Shown here: piece by piece, positions 54,434 to 61,542 of the stretch
Layout of the letters: the number at the start of each line of letters is the position of its first letter
Numbering within the stretch: the stretch's first letter is position 1
DNA from: a virus
Taxonomy: Duplodnaviria; Caudoviricetes
IMG/VR virus record: IMGVR_UViG_3300037067_001795
Span: 1 to 64,000 of that record
Strand: one strand, 5' to 3'
Length of the DNA: 64,000 nt
Notes under the pieces: generated by a model
Databases searched by the model: none
What the model saw: only the letters and a program-made list of their open reading frames with translations
Told to the model about the DNA's origin: nothing
Translations under genes and position numbers: made by a program

Positions 54434-56698
54434 CTACGCTTCGGGCTTGGCCCAGTTCACCGTCGGCAACGGCAGATAGTCGTTGTCATCGTCCTTCGTG
54501 CCCACGTTGGCCGTAGGCGGTACCGACGCCCCAAAGTAGCTCGGCACGTTCTGGCTCTCGTTCACAAGCGGCTTGGCCAACGCAGCCAAGTTCTGGAGCG
54601 TGTCCAACGGCATGGCGTTGAGCTGTTCCTTCGTGAACTTGTTTTGGGCGTTGCCAGTGATCACACCGATGGCCACGTCCTTGCGCTCCTGCTTGATGCT
54701 GCGCGCAAGGGCGATGTCTTCCATCTGCTCTCGGGTCAGGACGTTGCCCGTGGGTTTCTCTTCGTCCACAACTTCTTCCTCCTCTTCGTCCGCTGCCGCC
54801 ATCTTCTTCTTGATGAATTCCGGCATAGCGTTCACGGTGATCTTGGAATCCATGCCGAACCCTTCACGGGCGGCATTTACGACAGCGTCGGCTTGGAGCT
54901 GCTTCTCCAATGCGGTATCCAGCTTGTTGAGCTGGTTGTCCGTCAGGTCCATCAACTCATCGCGATCAGCCTCATCCCAGCAGCAGCTATTCTCGATGAG
55001 GTTATCCACGATATCTTCGCGGCTTTTGGTCATATCTGACCTCCTTCTACGTTGGTTACGAGTTTGGCCAGACTGGCCTGGATTACCCTTTGACACACGG
55101 ATGGTTGTTTCACCATAGCCGAAGTCTACAAGCGTAGCTGTAAGGTCGCCCTTAGACATCGCTTCCTGCACGTTCTTGCCACCGGAGATGCTGGGTATGT
55201 TCTGACTGTGAGTGTGTTTCCACCCGTCATTGATCATCTTGGTTCGTACCTTGCCGATATCTTCCGAGGCTAGAACAGACTCCTTCCCATGTCCGGCACG
55301 CACATTAGCATCAGCCACGACCATCTTCTTACTGCCTTGATAGGGATTCTGTGTCGTAGCAATCCCAGCACTGCTTAGCACCTCTGCAGTTTTCTTACTG
55401 GGTAGATCCTTGCGTGCTTTGTGCATCGCAATAGAGATAGGCACTTCGTCAGTACCAGACACGCGTTGAACGGCATCACCCTTGAGTGTTGTAGACTTTG
55501 CTTTCTTAGGGGCAACTGCTTTCGCAGCATCAGCGGCCTCACGACCCTTCCTACTGGCTGCCCCAGACTCTTTCCACAGCTTGCTAGCCTCTTCTTTCTC
55601 ACCCTTGTCAGACATCTTGCGAGCCTTGGCTGCCAGCTTGGATGCCTCTGCCTGATACTTCTTGGCATCAGCTCTGAGCGATTCATAGTCAGAGCCACCA
55701 CCCGCTTCGCCCTTGTACGACGCCTTCTCGGTCTCAGCGGCAGCACGATCTTCGCTAGCCTTAGACTTAGCGTCTAGTTCAAGTGCCTTCCGCTTGGCGA
55801 TTGTTTCACGCAGTGGGCCTTCCTCAATAGCGGCAGCTTTGCCGTACTCTTCCTGCTCTTCAAGATCTGCCATTTCCTTGGTGAGACTGGCCTCTTTCTT
55901 CTTCAGTGAGTCAATCTCACCAGCACCGCTCTTGGCAGCACCATGGGCCTTGGACGCACCCTTGCCGCCAGTAGCTCCACCACCTCCACCTCCGCCCGCA
56001 CCGAACTGGCCTTTCGCATCACGGGGTTGATTGGGGTTGTAGGCGTTCTCAACACCTAGCAGCACAGCGAGGCTCTGGAGCACAGACAATTTCTCTTCAA
56101 GCGGCACGGTAGTATCTCCTGTGTGGTTGACCAGCACACCACAGCCGTCCCTGAGGGAACAAGCACCGATCTGATCAGGCAGGATTGCCAAGTGATCCGG
56201 TCTGTAGTTGCGTGCCACGTGCGTATAGAGCTTGCCGTCCGGCGCAGTAGAGCCGTTCTCTGCTGGCTCGTTGTCCGTGTACAGCCCCGTGCTCAGCTCC
56301 TGCGGCTCGTTCCGCAGCAATGCGTCGTACACTCGCTGGTCTACGGTACGTGTGCGCTCTGCGTCAAACCAGCCCTCGGCGGTCAGCTTGCCGTTATAGG
56401 CAGGCCGGCGCACGTAGCCGATCCCTTGCTTGTCCAGCACTCCGGGCGACTGGGCAGACACGTGCGATCCGTCTACCGATTGCGGATGGTAGACCACGAT
56501 CGGCATCTCGTTCCATGCCATGAAGTCCCGCTCAATCTCGTCAGCGGGATAGTACAGAGGCCCCTGTGATCCATTCAGGACACCGGGAACGATCAGCGTC
56601 AGAGGGGCAACAAGATACTCGCGTCCGCCACGGAACTGGCGTCGCGTCTTACCTGTCACGTTCGCTGTAATAGAATGGAGCATGCTTTTCCTCGGCAA
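54434..56698 (-). CDS. DUF2213-like prohead protease/scaffold with an inserted cargo region
   Basis: PGVLNG, ELSTGLY, DHLAIL..GAC; then NAYNPNQPRD tag, a charged segment and an acidic scaffold C-terminus. Confidence 0.82.
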   Translation of the reverse strand: MPRKSMLHSITANVTGKTRRQFRGGREYLVAPLTLIVPGVLNGSQGPLYYPADEIERDFMAWNEMPIVVYHPQSVDGSHVSAQSPGVLDKQGIGYVRRPAYNGKLTAEGWFDAERTRTVDQRVYDALLRNEPQELSTGLYTDNEPAENGSTAPDGKLYTHVARNYRPDHLAILPDQIGACSLRDGCGVLVNHTGDTTVPLEEKLSVLQSLAVLLGVENAYNPNQPRDAKGQFGAGGGGGGGATGGKGASKAHGAAKSGAGEIDSLKKKEASLTKEMADLEEQEEYGKAAAIEEGPLRETIAKRKALELDAKSKASEDRAAAETEKASYKGEAGGGSDYESLRADAKKYQAEASKLAAKARKMSDKGEKEEASKLWKESGAASRKGREAADAAKAVAPKKAKSTTLKGDAVQRVSGTDEVPISIAMHKARKDLPSKKTAEVLSSAGIATTQNPYQGSKKMVVADANVRAGHGKESVLASEDIGKVRTKMINDGWKHTHSQNIPSISGGKNVQEAMSKGDLTATLVDFGYGETTIRVSKGNPGQSGQTRNQRRRRSDMTKSREDIVDNLIENSCCWDEADRDELMDLTDNQLNKLDTALEKQLQADAVVNAAREGFGMDSKITVNAMPEFIKKKMAAADEEEEEVVDEEKPTGNVLTREQMEDIALARSIKQERKDVAIGVITGNAQNKFTKEQLNAMPLDTLQNLAALAKPLVNESQNVPSYFGASVPPTANVGTKDDDNDYLPLPTVNWAKPEA

Positions 56699-57165: not shown

Positions 57166-60100
57166 TCATAGGAGCCACTCCTTAGACTTAGATGAGACTT
57201 GGTCTACCCACGGCGGAAAGATACCCTGCTTGTACCGTGGATCTGTGGTCAAGGCAAAGATCTCACAGAATGCTTCCTCAGCATTCTTGCCAGCGTAGCT
57301 AGTAACATCTGTCCCAACGGTGCTTGGAACCATGCTTCTCCACTCACGCTGTTGTTCGTTTGACAGCTTACCAAATAGCTTGTGACCGTACTCATGTCGT
57401 AGGATAGCAGCATAGCCACCAACACCACCAGCCGTAGGTTGACCTGGGACTAGATCAGACCCGCTCTCGCCACGCCAGAACGGACTGTCGTAGACGTGAG
57501 TTGCAGCCCGTTCCTCTGCCGCACATGAACGACCCTTCTCTTGCCTCCTGAAGATAATAGGAACGTCACCATGCTTCTCAGCAAACTCCTGATATGCAGG
57601 GTTCGCCCTATTGGCATTCGCAGCATTCTGTATCTCCAAGTGCAGCTCTGGGTCAAGGTCCTTGAAGGCAGGCTTGTCGCCCTCGTTCCCCTTCTTAGAC
57701 CGTAGCACCTTCTTCCAGTTATCCACGATCTCTTCATGGGACGGCCTGTTACTTGCGTCCAACCGTCCTTGCTTGATCATGTGGTCAGCAAATCCCTCAG
57801 CCTCACCAGCAATCAGCTCAGCAGCCTCGTTCACATTAGTCACAACGACTTGACCACCGTGCGTCTTCGCCCACTGCTCGGCTTCCTTCAGTGTGCTAAA
57901 CTTCGGCGGAGCGTCTGGTATACTCTCGTGACCCACACCACCTCCCCCACTGCTCCATTGGCCTTTGTAGTCACGTGGTTGATTGGGGTTATAGTTAACC
58001 ACGCTGACCGGTCGCTTCTTGGCGATACGCTTGTCAGGGCCTACCCACTTGGTTCGCTTACGTTGCTCCGCCAGCGTACGCTTCTTAGGCTTCTCAGCCT
58101 TCAAGCTCTCGGTGATAGCAGCTTGGATCTCCTCCTTGCGGCGCACCTGTTCCTTCTGCGGCTCGCCCACGTTAGCGGGTAGGTGTGCGCATCTACAGTT
58201 GCTGACTACTAGTCCACCACTATAATACAGGCTAGTTGCTGTTGTGGCATCAAAAGCAAGTCCTTCATACTCGGTAAAGGAAACACTATGAATCCGCTCC
58301 CACTTGAAGAGGTTAGGCAACGCTACTTGGCTGGAGAAAGTCTGTGTTCTATGCAGCAACGATTCGGGGTCAATCGTAGTGCAATTAAACTCCGTCTCGA
58401 GAGAATGGGGATCGTCCTCAGAAGATACACCCCTGCTGAGAAGGCCAAATTTGCTTACGAAGCTAGAAGGGGCCAGACTGACACTATGGCCACTAAGCTG
58501 GCTAGAGCCACTACTAGATCGAAGCTCGGTCTTGGGGTAGGTTCCTGCGAAGTTGCCCTCTCGCAATTTCTCGACGCCGAAGGAATCCCATACTCCCAGC
58601 AAACCACGTGCGGGCCATATTGCCTCGACTTTACCCTGACAGAACACCCTATCGCCGTGGAGATCCGAGGACGTGGCTACAATCCCAGAGTTGCCCGTAA
58701 CTCTAAGAAGAGACTCAAATATGTTCTCGACCGTTGGAACTTGATTTACATTCAAGCCTGTGGAAGACCCATTCTTCCGGTGGTCGTAGAGTACATAGTC
58801 GCCTTCTCTAAGCTGTGCCGCAGGAACCATTCCTCTAGGGGTGAGTATTGGGTGATTAGGTCCGATGGTCGTCCGAGCCAACCCGCTCCGCAGGGTAAGT
58901 ACAATAGCTGGGCCGCAATACCAAGCCCGGACCAGCTCCTCGCATTCGCCATAAGAAGCAAACGATGATCCAGCAAACACAGCATTAGGATGCCTCGGAA
59001 TCATGCCCCTCGCTTCTTTTATTGTGAGCACTACACCGTCCATGGCTTGACATAGTCTACACACCCTACCGTCGCCAGCCGTATCCCACTCCACCATGAC
59101 GCCTACTTCGGTCACGCCTAGTCGCTCCATAGCGTCTAGCTGACCTTCTGCATGGCTGCGAATTACTTCTGTCCTCGCAATAGTCGCAGCCCTATTGGAG
59201 CCGAAGCCTAGCTCGTCCTTGAGCCGTCGTGCTAGAACGTGTGGATTGTCGCCACGTGCGAAGCCTTCAGTCAACTCGCGACTGACTACTACGGCCATCG
59301 CTTCAGTCACGCCCTTCAGATCAGTGAACACGCGACCCGCCATGAGTTGAACCTTCTCAATGCTCATGGGCCTGCCGAAACTGCTCCGTAGGAACTCCTC
59401 CTTCGTGCCGTTGTACCATCGCATATCCTTCTGCACAGCCGGTACTCTCACGTCGTCAAAGGCACGACCCTGTCCCTTCTGGTAGGCCTCCTCCACAAAC
59501 TTGCGCCAGTACGCCTCACCCAGTCCGTCGTCCTTGCCAGCCAGCACCTCGTCCTTCAGCACCCCCTGCAACCACTTCAAGAACGCCGCTATCTGCTGCG
59601 GCCTACTCTGAAAGACCCACCGTGCGTTCGTCGCTAGTTGGTTGTGAGTAGCCTTCCACTTCTTACGCTTCGCTTCCCAGATCTTTCTAGCGTCTGGATT
59701 GGCTGGTGCCTTACCACTCAGCCATGTAGGATAATCCACAGACTTTGTAGGTGTGGCCTTCTTGACAACTGGGGGCTTGCTAATCCCAGGGAGGATAGAT
59801 TTGCTGGGTTCTACGGTCGACGCGGTCCCAAACTTACGATCCATAAGATCTTTGACTACGGCTGACGACCTTGGTAGTTTGTCTGTGAGTGATTCTGCAT
59901 GTAGGTCTGCCCCTAGATGGTACGCTGTCAGATGGGCAAACGATTCATTTCGACCTTGGCTTCTACCAGTCAAGAAATAGTTATGCTGCCCATACTTCTC
60001 TGCGGCACTGATAGATCGCATATCCAGCTTGTACGCTTCAGCAAACGTATCAGAGCTAGACCAATCATTTTCAACATCTAGTACGTGCCCTACTTCGTGG

Positions 60101-61542
60101 GCTACAGCGTAGAAGTTCCTTTCCTCATCGGTGCTTGTGGGGTCTAGCTTCTTAGCCATGTCACCCGCATGAACCTTCTCAGAGAAGTTCAGTTCCTTCT
60201 TGTCATAGTTGACAAAGGCGTTTGCCCCCTGTTTACGCATCTCTTCGTCTGAGATTGACTTAACAACCCATCCCTTAGATTCTACAAACGCCTTGATGGA
60301 TGATGGTAACTTGTCATAAGCTTCTAAGGTAGTATCAGCAGCTCCACCACCAGAGCCCCATCTACCACGAGCATCCCGTGGTTGATTAGGATTGTATGCG
60401 TTCGCAGTCACGCCCTTGTAATCGCCCACTCTCCACTCTGTCTCGCCCGGATTGTAATAGAGGTCCTTTACGTCGGCGGTCCTGATGAAGATAGTGCTGG
60501 CGGGCTTCGCGTCCTTCAGATGGTCTGGCCAGCCCGTACCCATGAACAGCGGAAACTGCTTGCCTTCCAGCGACACAGCCTGAAGCACAGCGAAGTCGTT
60601 GTCGCCGTGTTGCAGCATCAGGTCGTTCACACGTGCCTCAGACACACCGTGCGTCACGCCAGCACTAACCAGCTCGTCTCTAGTAAGTTCGCCTCTAGCT
60701 GCCTTCCGTGCAATGTTGAGGCCGTCGCGGTACTTCTCAGCGTTGTCTTTCGTGGTAAACGAGATCAGGTTGGAAGCACTGCCGCCCAGCGTCTGCTGAC
60801 CCAGCTCGTCGCTGCTCTTCAGGCCCTCTGTCTTGATCTTGTCTGCTGCGAACGTGGCATGATAGAGCTGGTCTGGTGGCTCTACGTAGCCTGGATGCCC
60901 CGGTCGCAAGCCGCTCGGCGTAGCCAGTCCTTCAATCCGTTGCAGCTCCGTAGACTGTCGCTCACGGTCCTTCCAGTACTCCTCTCGCTTGCGTTCCGCC
61001 TCTGCCTTGGTTGCCTCGCTGGACTGCCGCAGCCGTACGTCCTTGATATCCAGTCCCATCTCCTCATGCTCTTTGAGGGCCAGCCTAGCATCCTCAACGG
61101 ACATGGTCGCTACGATGTCGTCGTTGTCGTCCAGGAACTCCACATCGCCGGTCATGTCACTCGGCAGCTTGTCGGCTGTGAACACACCACCAGCTCCACC
61201 ACCGCCACTACTCCACTTGCCCTCTGCATCACGTGGTTGCGAAGGGTTGTAGGCGTTCAACGTACTCTCACGCACCAGACCAAACGCGTCCTCTACCAGC
61301 AACAGGTCTTGGATCTGCTTAGCCACTCGTGCAAACCGCCTACGTAACTCCACCTCAAACAAACGCCGCAACGTAGCAGTCCTACTTGGATCACTACGTA
61401 GTGGGTTCTTGGCCTTGCGTGGATTGCCTGCATTAGAAGTGAGAGGGCTGCCAGGGTGTGACCCTGTGCGTTCCTCGGGTAAGGTACGACCCCTGCTCCC
61501 CGAGGAGACAACAACCCTCTTGCGTGGCTTAGCGATCACCAT
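57166..61542 (-). CDS. MuF/SPP1-gp7 head morphogenesis protein, polyvalent, intein-containing
   Basis: RAATIARTEVIRSH, WDTAGDGRVCRLC, HPN|intein|CRC; three NPNQPRD-tagged inserts including two HExxH domains. Confidence 0.92.
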   Translation of the reverse strand: MVIAKPRKRVVVSSGSRGRTLPEERTGSHPGSPLTSNAGNPRKAKNPLRSDPSRTATLRRLFEVELRRRFARVAKQIQDLLLVEDAFGLVRESTLNAYNPSQPRDAEGKWSSGGGGAGGVFTADKLPSDMTGDVEFLDDNDDIVATMSVEDARLALKEHEEMGLDIKDVRLRQSSEATKAEAERKREEYWKDRERQSTELQRIEGLATPSGLRPGHPGYVEPPDQLYHATFAADKIKTEGLKSSDELGQQTLGGSASNLISFTTKDNAEKYRDGLNIARKAARGELTRDELVSAGVTHGVSEARVNDLMLQHGDNDFAVLQAVSLEGKQFPLFMGTGWPDHLKDAKPASTIFIRTADVKDLYYNPGETEWRVGDYKGVTANAYNPNQPRDARGRWGSGGGAADTTLEAYDKLPSSIKAFVESKGWVVKSISDEEMRKQGANAFVNYDKKELNFSEKVHAGDMAKKLDPTSTDEERNFYAVAHEVGHVLDVENDWSSSDTFAEAYKLDMRSISAAEKYGQHNYFLTGRSQGRNESFAHLTAYHLGADLHAESLTDKLPRSSAVVKDLMDRKFGTASTVEPSKSILPGISKPPVVKKATPTKSVDYPTWLSGKAPANPDARKIWEAKRKKWKATHNQLATNARWVFQSRPQQIAAFLKWLQGVLKDEVLAGKDDGLGEAYWRKFVEEAYQKGQGRAFDDVRVPAVQKDMRWYNGTKEEFLRSSFGRPMSIEKVQLMAGRVFTDLKGVTEAMAVVVSRELTEGFARGDNPHVLARRLKDELGFGSNRAATIARTEVIRSHAEGQLDAMERLGVTEVGVMVEWDTAGDGRVCRLCQAMDGVVLTIKEARGMIPRHPNAVFAGSSFASYGECEELVRAWYCGPAIVLTLRSGLARTTIGPNHPILTPRGMVPAAQLREGDYVLYDHRKNGSSTGLNVNQVPTVENIFESLLRVTGNSGIVATSSDLHGDRVFCQGKVEAIWPARGLLGVWDSFGVEKLREGNFAGTYPKTELRSSSGSSQLSGHSVSLAPSSFVSKFGLLSRGVSSEDDPHSLETEFNCTTIDPESLLHRTQTFSSQVALPNLFKWERIHSVSFTEYEGLAFDATTATSLYYSGGLVVSNCRCAHLPANVGEPQKEQVRRKEEIQAAITESLKAEKPKKRTLAEQRKRTKWVGPDKRIAKKRPVSVVNYNPNQPRDYKGQWSSGGGGVGHESIPDAPPKFSTLKEAEQWAKTHGGQVVVTNVNEAAELIAGEAEGFADHMIKQGRLDASNRPSHEEIVDNWKKVLRSKKGNEGDKPAFKDLDPELHLEIQNAANANRANPAYQEFAEKHGDVPIIFRRQEKGRSCAAEERAATHVYDSPFWRGESGSDLVPGQPTAGGVGGYAAILRHEYGHKLFGKLSNEQQREWRSMVPSTVGTDVTSYAGKNAEEAFCEIFALTTDPRYKQGIFPPWVDQVSSKSKEWLL
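58199..58226 (+). promoter_or_regulatory. candidate promoter for the antisense endonuclease gene
   Basis: TTGCTG-N16-TATAAT, 62 nt upstream of ATG 58288. Confidence 0.45.
58288..58968 (+). CDS. HTH + DUF559/Vsr-like endonuclease encoded antisense within the intein
   Basis: RYLAGESLCSMQQRFGVNRSAIKLRL (HTH); EVALSQFLDAEGIPYSQQTTCGPYCLDFTLTEHPIAVEIRG; AAGGA RBS; TATAAT at 58221. Confidence 0.75.
   Translation: MNPLPLEEVRQRYLAGESLCSMQQRFGVNRSAIKLRLERMGIVLRRYTPAEKAKFAYEARRGQTDTMATKLARATTRSKLGLGVGSCEVALSQFLDAEGIPYSQQTTCGPYCLDFTLTEHPIAVEIRGRGYNPRVARNSKKRLKYVLDRWNLIYIQACGRPILPVVVEYIVAFSKLCRRNHSSRGEYWVIRSDGRPSQPAPQGKYNSWAAIPSPDQLLAFAIRSKR

Follow-up and report, generated by a model that had tools for sequence, protein, structure and literature searches.

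To our knowledge, inteins are defined at the level of the protein: the endonuclease, if there is one, lies in the same polypeptide, and the sole known exception is the split, 'fractured gene' form. Here we analyze an element that appears to follow neither arrangement. It lies in a 64,000-nucleotide stretch of viral DNA (positions 1 to 64,000 of the IMG/VR record IMGVR_UViG_3300037067_001795, Caudoviricetes), referred to below as the window, where a 262-residue intein interrupts the gene of a MuF-type head-morphogenesis protein. The complementary strand of the same DNA carries a 226-residue open reading frame (ORF) for a protein with a helix-turn-helix (HTH) module and a nuclease domain of the Vsr/DUF559 type. 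Our preferred reading, to which we assign a probability of roughly three in four, is that this is a mobile intein in a phage MuF gene and that its homing endonuclease, instead of forming a domain of the intein polypeptide, has a gene of its own on the complementary strand.

Classical mobile inteins with LAGLIDADG or HNH endonucleases (PI-SceI, VMA, RecA) share several properties with this element. They contain an in-frame Hint domain at a conserved site of an essential gene, their nuclease coding sequence lies between the Hint lobes, and both empty-site alleles and nuclease-less mini-inteins accompany them. They differ in that the nuclease of the present element is outside the intein polypeptide, is encoded on the opposite strand from its own start codon, and has a Vsr/DUF559 fold. 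The intein polypeptide itself carries the antisense 'shadow' of the nuclease gene as its linker.

The closest known arrangement is the fractured gene, in which a free-standing gene for a GIY-YIG or Vsr-like (EDxHD) endonuclease lies between the halves of a split intein (PMC2677866, Dassa et al. 2009). I-Bth0305I is a characterised endonuclease of this kind and has an HTH plus Vsr architecture (PMC3239194, Taylor et al. 2011). As in the window, these systems are phage-borne, their nuclease gene is separately translated within intein DNA, and an N-terminal HTH/NUMOD-type module is followed by a C-terminal Vsr-like catalytic domain; our comparison of the N-terminal module concerns the HTH and not NUMOD identity. 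Conversely, the host gene and intein of a fractured gene are distributed over two ORFs and trans-splicing is obligatory, whereas here the nuclease is antisense and codon-aligned, the intein frame is open, and cis splicing is possible. The EDxHD motif is also partial here, with E88, D114 and E125 present and the His replaced by Asn132 in the window. Neither of the two papers mentions an opposite-strand arrangement.

In nuclear rDNA and in organelles, some group I introns carry their homing endonuclease gene in antisense orientation. They resemble the present element in placing a self-splicing element and a homing nuclease on opposite strands of one mobile DNA. However, the intron RNA need not be an ORF, whereas here both strands are protein-coding and about 225 codons overlap under selection. 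The DUF559/REase_MTES_1575/Vsr superfamily (PF04480, PF18741, PF03852) shares with the antisense protein its fold and the acidic residues of strands 2 and 3 (Y-x-x-D ... V-E). In contrast, its generic members (24 bacterial loci) are free-standing or fused to large proteins, with ordinary antisense stops and no Hint domain. In one metagenomic study, an element of 0.8 kb in a minor head protein is listed as an intein or 'homing endonuclease', with the strand unremarked (PMC7468147). Within the literature searched, which does not extend to subscription journals, we found no report of an intein with its endonuclease gene on the opposite strand.

Results

The host ORF on the minus strand of the window encodes 1458 residues. 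It matches Pfam Phage_Mu_F at residues 753-845 (expectation value, E = 3e-10) as well as PHROG head-morphogenesis families, and in homologous loci the portal gene directly precedes the MuF gene. HPNCRC, the hallmark and most conserved motif of MuF proteins, is interrupted in frame between HPN and CRC by an insert of 786 nucleotides, or 262 codons, which starts with AVFAG and ends with VVSN, with Cys at position +1. The plus-strand ORF is contained wholly within this insert, and the coordinates of both elements proposed in an earlier reading of the DNA letters (the first-pass annotation) are exact (Table 1). The two frames are codon-aligned, so that position 1 of a plus-strand codon lies opposite position 3 of a minus-strand codon and nuclease residue i faces intein residue 233-i. 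As a consequence of this register, a stop in the intein frame can arise only from a TTA, CTA or TCA codon of the nuclease, and the reverse holds likewise.

We compared 32 non-redundant elements, drawn from seven intein homologues (L001-L007) and 38 loci found via the nuclease alignment. In all of them the insert occupies the same MuF site, with HP(N/D) before it, the pattern A...N within and Cys after it. The intein frame is free of stops in every case, and the codon-aligned antisense frame is open for 190-670 residues with the nuclease motifs intact. The exteins of these relatives contain 2.0 aligned-antisense stops per 100 codons (338 in 16,776), a rate from which 126 would be expected in the intein core; 3 were found there in 6,275 codons. 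For the other frame, 110 intein-frame stops would be expected in the intein centre from the Leu/Ser content of the nuclease and the local codon usage, and none was seen. The first-pass annotation had both strands open across splicing blocks A and B, and the nuclease frame indeed contains no stop within intein codons 23-70 in any of the 32 loci. These counts confirm that the antisense frame is open far beyond chance.

Selection on the two strands forms a mosaic, with the Hint ends constrained on the minus strand and the HTH and nuclease core on the plus strand. Entropy by codon position is highest at the third position of the intein frame over intein residues 1-70 and 241-262, and at the third position of the nuclease frame over intein residues ~91-180 (nuclease residues 53-142). 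We also resampled codons synonymously with one protein held fixed and compared the entropy of the other frame. The nuclease frame is 12-32 standard deviations (SD) more conserved than the intein-fixed null over nuclease residues 53-162 and 8-16 SD over residues 163-202, and for the intein frame, conservation beyond the nuclease-fixed null amounts to 13-31 SD at residues 1-70 and 241-262 and 10-21 SD at residues 101-140; the loci are phylogenetically related, and these z-scores, like probability products, overstate independence. In the disordered linker (intein residues 146-228), z is -2 to -6 for the intein frame and -22 to -31 for the nuclease frame, and in the Hint C-terminal lobe it is -22 to -30 for the intein frame and about 0 to -4 for the plus frame. 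Since these presumed passive-shadow baselines span about 0 to -6, part of every z-score reflects shared ancestry. The antisense ORF is under purifying selection of its own, as a gene in its own right, which is how the first-pass annotation had interpreted it, should be.

Both frames are constrained at intein residues 31-70 and 101-140, which amounts to about 80 codons selected on both strands. The effect is visible in single codons. Nuclease A123 is encoded by GCC in 32/32 loci, V124 by GTG in 31/32 and I/V122 by NTC in 32/32, and these codons encode intein Gly110, His109 and Asp111, respectively; T/A118 is ACA or GCA in 30/32, encoding intein Cys115. No such freezing is seen at the invariant nuclease residue G62, where four codons are found (9/9/7/7), or at R61, where six are found. 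Neither E125 nor D114 of the nuclease varies, although the intein residues that they face do. Over its last ~25-60 residues, the nuclease mainly shadows Hint blocks A and B; however, the Vsr fold reaches residue ~200, and therefore about 40 codons over block B are truly dual-coded. An imprint of block B can be recognised even in an alignment of 112 nuclease relatives, in columns with V/M (opposite His CAC/CAT), I/V (opposite Asn) and R/W/G (opposite Pro). Identity between relatives is higher for the nuclease than for the intein encoded in the same DNA, for example 73% versus 58% in L001.

The arrangement extends well beyond these elements. Three representatives of the nuclease family that had been called as ordinary, 'free-standing' genes were chosen at random, and all three proved to lie antisense within uninterrupted inteins. 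All 15 further full-length nuclease matches in viral contigs and GTDB genomes are also embedded in inteins with both frames open, and the notion that the family is mostly free-standing was rejected on these two samples. Four of four cultured phages carry the arrangement (Rhodococcus phage REQ3, Aaphi23, a Pseudomonas aeruginosa phage and Gordonia phage Malisha). Altogether, the antisense ORF is intact in 54 of the 54 homologous loci examined, and its conservation is thereby upheld. None of our conclusions depends on the unpublished genomes G038 and G227. Among the 24 generic DUF559 loci from the same search, antisense stops occur in 14 and a Hint domain on the opposite strand in none.

Existing annotations record one of the two genes at a time. 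The GenBank records of the cultured phages (REQ3, Aaphi23, Malisha and the Pseudomonas phages) list the coding sequence of the head protein only and leave the nuclease unannotated. Short metagenomic contigs are the reverse: in L046 (a JGI contig), L047 and L048, gene callers report the antisense nuclease and leave the intein-bearing host gene uncalled or fragmented.

The antisense protein belongs to a large family: in a library clustered at 50% identity, 439 cluster representatives are homologous to it at E<=1e-10, and relaxing the threshold to E<=1e-3 raises the number to 1287. Alignments were the basis of the fold and profile evidence for both proteins. The AlphaFold model of the nuclease has a predicted local distance difference test (pLDDT) score of 89 and comprises three N-terminal helices that form an HTH, followed by a helical linker and a nuclease domain of alpha-beta-beta-beta-alpha-beta topology that extends to residue ~200. 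The nearest structures identified by VIA are DUF559 3hrl (Z 11.4; root-mean-square deviation (rmsd) 2.2 over 89 residues), Vsr 1cw0 (Z 11.0) and I-Bth0305I 3r3p (Z 10.5; rmsd 2.5 over 93 residues), and Foldseek assigns a Vsr-like fold with a probability of 1.00. Searched against PDB sequences, the family profile matches 3hrl at 1e-7 and 3r3p at 6.5e-5. At E<=0.01, Pfam MTES_1575 matches 79 of the 112 relatives and DUF559 31. The predicted structure thus agrees with the first-pass annotation, which had recognised an HTH and a DUF559/Vsr-type pattern (E..L..FL...GI.Y..Q...GPY.LDF......AVEIRG, with EIRG in place of the usual EvDG..H); the pattern is present as described.

Residues E88, D114, E125 and R142 are conserved in 111-112 of the 112 relatives. 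The position of the catalytic His of Vsr and DUF559 is His in 49 of them, Asn in 15, including the window (Asn132), and another residue in 48. The composite EDxHD motif as a whole was not found; no conserved final Asp is identifiable among the 112 relatives alongside the conserved E88, D114 and E125. The alignment of these relatives proved too diverse for pattern scans. The N-terminal HTH has VIA matches to HTH domains of repressors and transposases (Z 5-6.6), many relatives match Pfam HTH_58, HTH_7 and HTH_23, and the number of N-terminal HTH modules varies among relatives from none to between one and three. In six loci with 281-residue inteins (L007, L018, L030 and L032-L034), the nuclease has no N-terminal HTH and an HTH-like segment is found at its C-terminus, encoded opposite a ~48-residue insertion in the Hint N-terminal lobe. 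In this lineage the DNA-binding module has changed its position, and a second shadow insertion is tolerated by the intein. A match to the HTH half only of the nuclease profile (E=6e-20) was also observed elsewhere in the window's own assembly, in a 117-residue open frame (G000:C166:4252-4545, plus strand).

The intein has homologues in 40 longer proteins, nearly all annotated or recognisable as MuF. In 37 of these the match spans at least 87% of the intein, with identities of 29-59% outside its own cluster (P0005), and the remaining three, which cover 49-56%, are nuclease-less mini-inteins. A single-sequence search of viral contigs with the intein gave no match. The AlphaFold model, based on a 32-sequence alignment, has an overall pLDDT of 72 with a confident Hint core (88-95 at residues 1-70 and 83-97 at residues 221-262). 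The top Foldseek matches are all inteins, those of RecA, GyrA and RadA being the best, with a probability of 1.00 and target TM-scores of 0.42-0.60. In block B, G41, P42, N43, H44, P45 and T48 are invariant in 32/32 loci, and the block B His (Thr-x-x-His) is present. The C-terminal Asn and Cys+1 are kept in all loci.

The centre of the intein had been described in the first-pass annotation as low in information. This holds for residues 146-203, a disordered shadow with pLDDT 35-41; it fails for residues ~101-140, which are constrained, with H109, G110 and D111 invariant in 32/32 loci and Cys115 present in 30/32. Residues 81-100 and 111-140 are also predicted to be ordered (pLDDT 74-90).

The first residue of the intein may point to an unusual chemistry. 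Cys1 is found in L020, L047, L048 and most of the more distant relatives, and close relatives with Cys1 match Pfam Intein_splicing, whereas no Pfam entry, Intein_splicing included, matches the intein of the window, which begins with Ala1. In an alignment of 35 inteins, Cys115 accompanies Ala1 in 31 of 33 Ala1 loci, with L043 as an exception; phage REQ3, compared separately, likewise has Ala1 without the Cys. The same position is Ile, Val or Thr in the three Cys1 relatives compared (L020, L047, L048). Ala1 implies a splicing route other than that of class 1, as judged from the sequence, and its association with Cys115 hints at a relocated, internal nucleophile. The class 3 triad (Trp-Cys-Thr) was not found: block F reads AFDAT with an invariant Asp245, block B contains no Trp, and block G contains no Thr.

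Signs that the element is mobile come from alleles that lack it. Empty-site contigs in runs X3, X5 and X7 of one wastewater study skip exactly 786 nucleotides, with flanks ~94% identical to the window. The X3 contig joins 58198 to 58985, and the intein-less alleles read HPNCRC, so that the intein-free form presupposed by the first-pass annotation does exist. These runs are labelled 'RNA-Seq'; their contigs are probably DNA and are uninformative on strand or transcript ends. Removal of an intron by RNA splicing in 'cDNA' libraries was considered as the cause of the skip and rejected, given that the skipping contigs diverge by ~6% in their flanks and represent another strain, and that the element is an uninterrupted in-frame Hint domain. 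Mini-inteins P0038 and P0043 (160 and 186 residues) occupy the same MuF site and lack intein residues ~136-223, which correspond to the N-terminal half of the nuclease; such nuclease-less forms are the expected end of a homing cycle. Both keep DLHGDxxxC. Because it is retained in mini-inteins without the nuclease half, the HGD/Cys segment belongs to the intein itself.

Distant intein-nuclease pairs occur at other MuF positions, in the large terminase gene and in unidentified proteins, and their inteins have Cys1 and match Pfam Intein_splicing. In L064 (G109:C290) the Cys1 intein and its antisense nuclease lie in a large terminase gene, with a Terminase_6C match after the intein, and in L058 and L065 in two unidentified host proteins. 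The +1 residue of L058 may be Ser instead of Cys, as suggested by a regular-expression match to IAHNS only.

Expression signals of the antisense gene were predicted in the first-pass annotation as well. The AAGGA ribosome-binding site is present, at a spacing of 6 nucleotides and not 7, and a Shine-Dalgarno-like motif precedes the start codon by 4-13 nucleotides in 24 of 30 relatives. The nuclease start lies 60-117 nucleotides inside the C-terminal coding end of the intein in 29 of 30 loci. The TATAAT hexamer is likewise present, whereas its reading as a promoter, though possible, gained no support, with a poor -35 element, no conservation and no report from the consensus scan.

Table 1. Position, strand and supporting evidence of the features discussed (window coordinates).
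Feature	Coordinates	Strand	Evidence
Host gene: MuF, a polyvalent head-morphogenesis protein of the SPP1 gp7 / phage Mu F type; ORF continuous across the intein	57166..61542	-	ORF, Pfam, PHROG
Whole 262-residue intein (Hint domain), Ala1...Ser-Asn262	58198..58983	-	HPN/CRC split, Hint fold, homologues, empty-site contig
Hint N-terminal lobe, intein residues 1-70, with TIGPNHPILT and blocks A and B; selection mainly on the intein frame	58774..58983	-	entropy, resampling, pLDDT
Intein centre, residues 71-145, partly ordered, antisense to the nuclease catalytic core	58549..58773	-	pLDDT, resampling, kept in mini-inteins
Intein-frame motif H109-G110-D111-x-x-F-C115-x-G117; same bases as nuclease T116...V124	58633..58659	-	invariance
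Intein residues 146-228, mostly disordered linker, passive antisense shadow of the nuclease HTH and helical linker	58300..58548	-	pLDDT, resampling, deleted in mini-inteins
Hint C-terminal lobe, intein residues 229-262, blocks F and G, ...AFDATTATSLYYSGGLVVSN	58198..58299	-	pLDDT, resampling
Antisense gene: 226-residue HTH + Vsr/DUF559-type nuclease, putative homing endonuclease	58288..58968	+	homologues, fold, intact in 54 loci
N-terminal HTH DNA-binding module, nuclease residues 1-45	58288..58422	+	three helices, pLDDT 92-97
Vsr-like nuclease domain, residues 83-200, with E88, D114, E125, R142	58534..58887	+	topology, conservation, Vsr alignment to model residue 199-210
Shine-Dalgarno-like AAGGA before nuclease ATG 58288	58277..58281	+	sequence
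TATAAT hexamer, possible but unsupported promoter; weak -35 TTGCTG, 3/6	58222..58227	+	sequence

Other features of the locus

The MuF polyprotein contains three copies of the motif NAYNPNQPRD-x-x-G-x-W-x-SGGGG (near residues 97, 385 and 1188), and a fourth copy is found in the neighbouring 754-residue ORF (54434-56698, minus strand). The copies match PHROGs 38358 and 12708 (head maturation protease) and look like processing or linker sites that delimit the domains of a polyvalent head protein. Two HExxH-type motifs, AHEVGH (residues ~472-499) and RHEYGH (residues ~1395-1405), are also present, the first as a weak match to Reprolysin_4 (E=0.02), and these segments may be zincin-like peptidase domains. 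The window carries a portal-MuF-head module and forms contig C6 of an assembly (G000) of 4.85 Mb in 295 contigs, 95% complete with 6.4% contamination. Probably, a contig of phage or prophage origin was binned here with a bacterial genome. A landfill run and a groundwater metagenome run contain near-identical DNA.

Discussion

We propose that the element functions as follows, with splicing, nuclease activity and the nuclease target predicted from the sequences and models described above. On the minus strand, the MuF precursor would be translated straight through the element. The Hint lobes (residues 1-70 and 229-262), together with a central piece (residues ~80-140, with HGDxxFCxG), would excise the insert and rejoin HPN to CRC, and residues 146-228 would serve as a disordered linker that the intein tolerates and that owes its sequence to the opposite strand. 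On the plus strand, an mRNA would begin inside the C-terminal coding end of the intein, and translation from the ATG at 58288 would yield the 226-residue nuclease. During co-infection, the nuclease would recognise and cut MuF alleles without the insert, and recombinational repair from the intein-bearing genome would copy intein and nuclease together. Selection would purge TTA, CTA and TCA codons from the nuclease, allowing both frames to persist with their constraints interleaved codon by codon.

Several observations weigh against this proposal. The first group concerns the nuclease. The protein of the window has Asn132 where ~44% of its relatives have the Vsr general-base His, its EIRG lacks the Asp of the E-x-D-G motif, and it falls below the Pfam threshold (MTES_1575 at 12.2 bits against a cutoff of 38.2 bits, E=0.19). 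Its activity could therefore be altered or lost. The antisense protein might then be expressed without being a homing enzyme, acting instead as an HTH regulator, as a nuclease for exclusion or against competitors, or as a DNA binder that has lost catalysis, with its gene merely housed where a packed genome tolerates an insertion. The variable, repressor-like HTH modules would fit such a role, and some intein-borne endonucleases are degenerate (PMC8966425). We nevertheless consider this explanation unlikely. The residues E88, D114, E125 and R142 are retained almost without exception, the association with Hint is obligate across host genes and sites, the element is present or absent with precise boundaries, and mini-inteins lose the nuclease half in the way that a homing cycle predicts.

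A second group of observations concerns the intein. The nucleophile Cys or Ser1 of class 1 inteins is absent from the window, as from 31 of its 32 close relatives, which have Ala1, and the penultimate His is replaced by Ser261 (Ser, Lys, Arg or His in relatives). With both residues missing, the splicing competence of the window's intein is a prediction. An intein that no longer splices, next to a genuine nuclease, would account for these substitutions and for the missing match to Intein_splicing. The Hint domain would then only cleave, or would act as a tolerated insertion or processing module of MuF polyproteins, which are proteolytically processed and carry peptidase-like domains, and the open frame would be needed only to reach the C-terminal domains. 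We judge this slightly less likely than a loss of the homing function. The insertion point lies exactly within the most conserved MuF motif, which reads HPNCRC in the intein-less alleles. Moreover, no locus has lost the terminal Asn or Cys+1, block B and blocks F and G are under strong purifying selection, and close Cys1 relatives do match Intein_splicing. Finally, splicing is known from inteins of classes 2 and 3 that begin with Ala1.

The remaining objections concern expression and sampling. A consensus promoter scan found no plus-strand sigma-70-like site upstream of the nuclease gene, and no terminator. No conserved promoter was found: the TATAAT hexamer falls on the LYYS codons, and most relatives have LYC or LYN at this place. 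Transcription and translation of the plus-strand ORF are predictions. In addition, L001-L007 were ascertained on an open intein frame (25 of the 32 loci were found through the nuclease instead), and the relatedness of the loci tempers the significance values. That the plus-strand ORF is a mere by-product, with a functional intein centre whose selection is mirrored in the openness and conservation of the antisense strand, is very improbable: codon-aligned antisense frames are those most often open by chance, the plus frame is open far past the intein in several high-GC relatives, and antisense translations of conserved genes also appear conserved, yet the third position of the plus frame is the most variable over nuclease residues 53-142, its entropy lies 12-32 SD under the intein-fixed null over residues 53-162, the plus-strand protein exceeds the intein in identity in the same DNA (73% versus 58% in L001), and a confident Vsr-like fold with DUF559 and I-Bth0305I profile matches falls where the intein frame is predicted to be disordered.

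A mobile intein with its homing endonuclease on the complementary strand therefore remains our preferred reading, and each computational check suggested with the first-pass annotation has favoured it. A broader interpretation can be suggested only tentatively. The elements may constitute a large, ancient and unrecognised class of inteins that is obligately coded on both strands over ~225 shared codons, with an Ala1 lineage that would splice via the Cys115/HGD segment. In this scheme, shared nucleotides would encode the key residues of both proteins: intein H109-G110-D111 and Cys115 lie opposite nuclease V124-A123-I122 and T118, beside the catalytic D114 and E125. If true, this would be among the longest and best-supported functional sense-antisense protein overlaps in phages or bacteria, together with a new splicing class.

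Conclusions

In the arrangement proposed here, the nuclease has its own gene on the complementary strand, and the intein remains undivided because the antisense frame is kept open. The price of this antisense register is ~225 dual-coded codons. Such an arrangement would represent a concrete intermediate for the colonisation of inteins by free-standing endonuclease genes. The codon alignment also permits a nuclease stop that is silent in the intein, and hence a clean genetic separation of the two functions. With about 50 diverged loci, the elements provide a replicated natural case of long antisense dual coding in which purifying selection is measurable on both strands, and they bear on the long-disputed reality of long antisense overlapping genes in prokaryotic and phage genomes.

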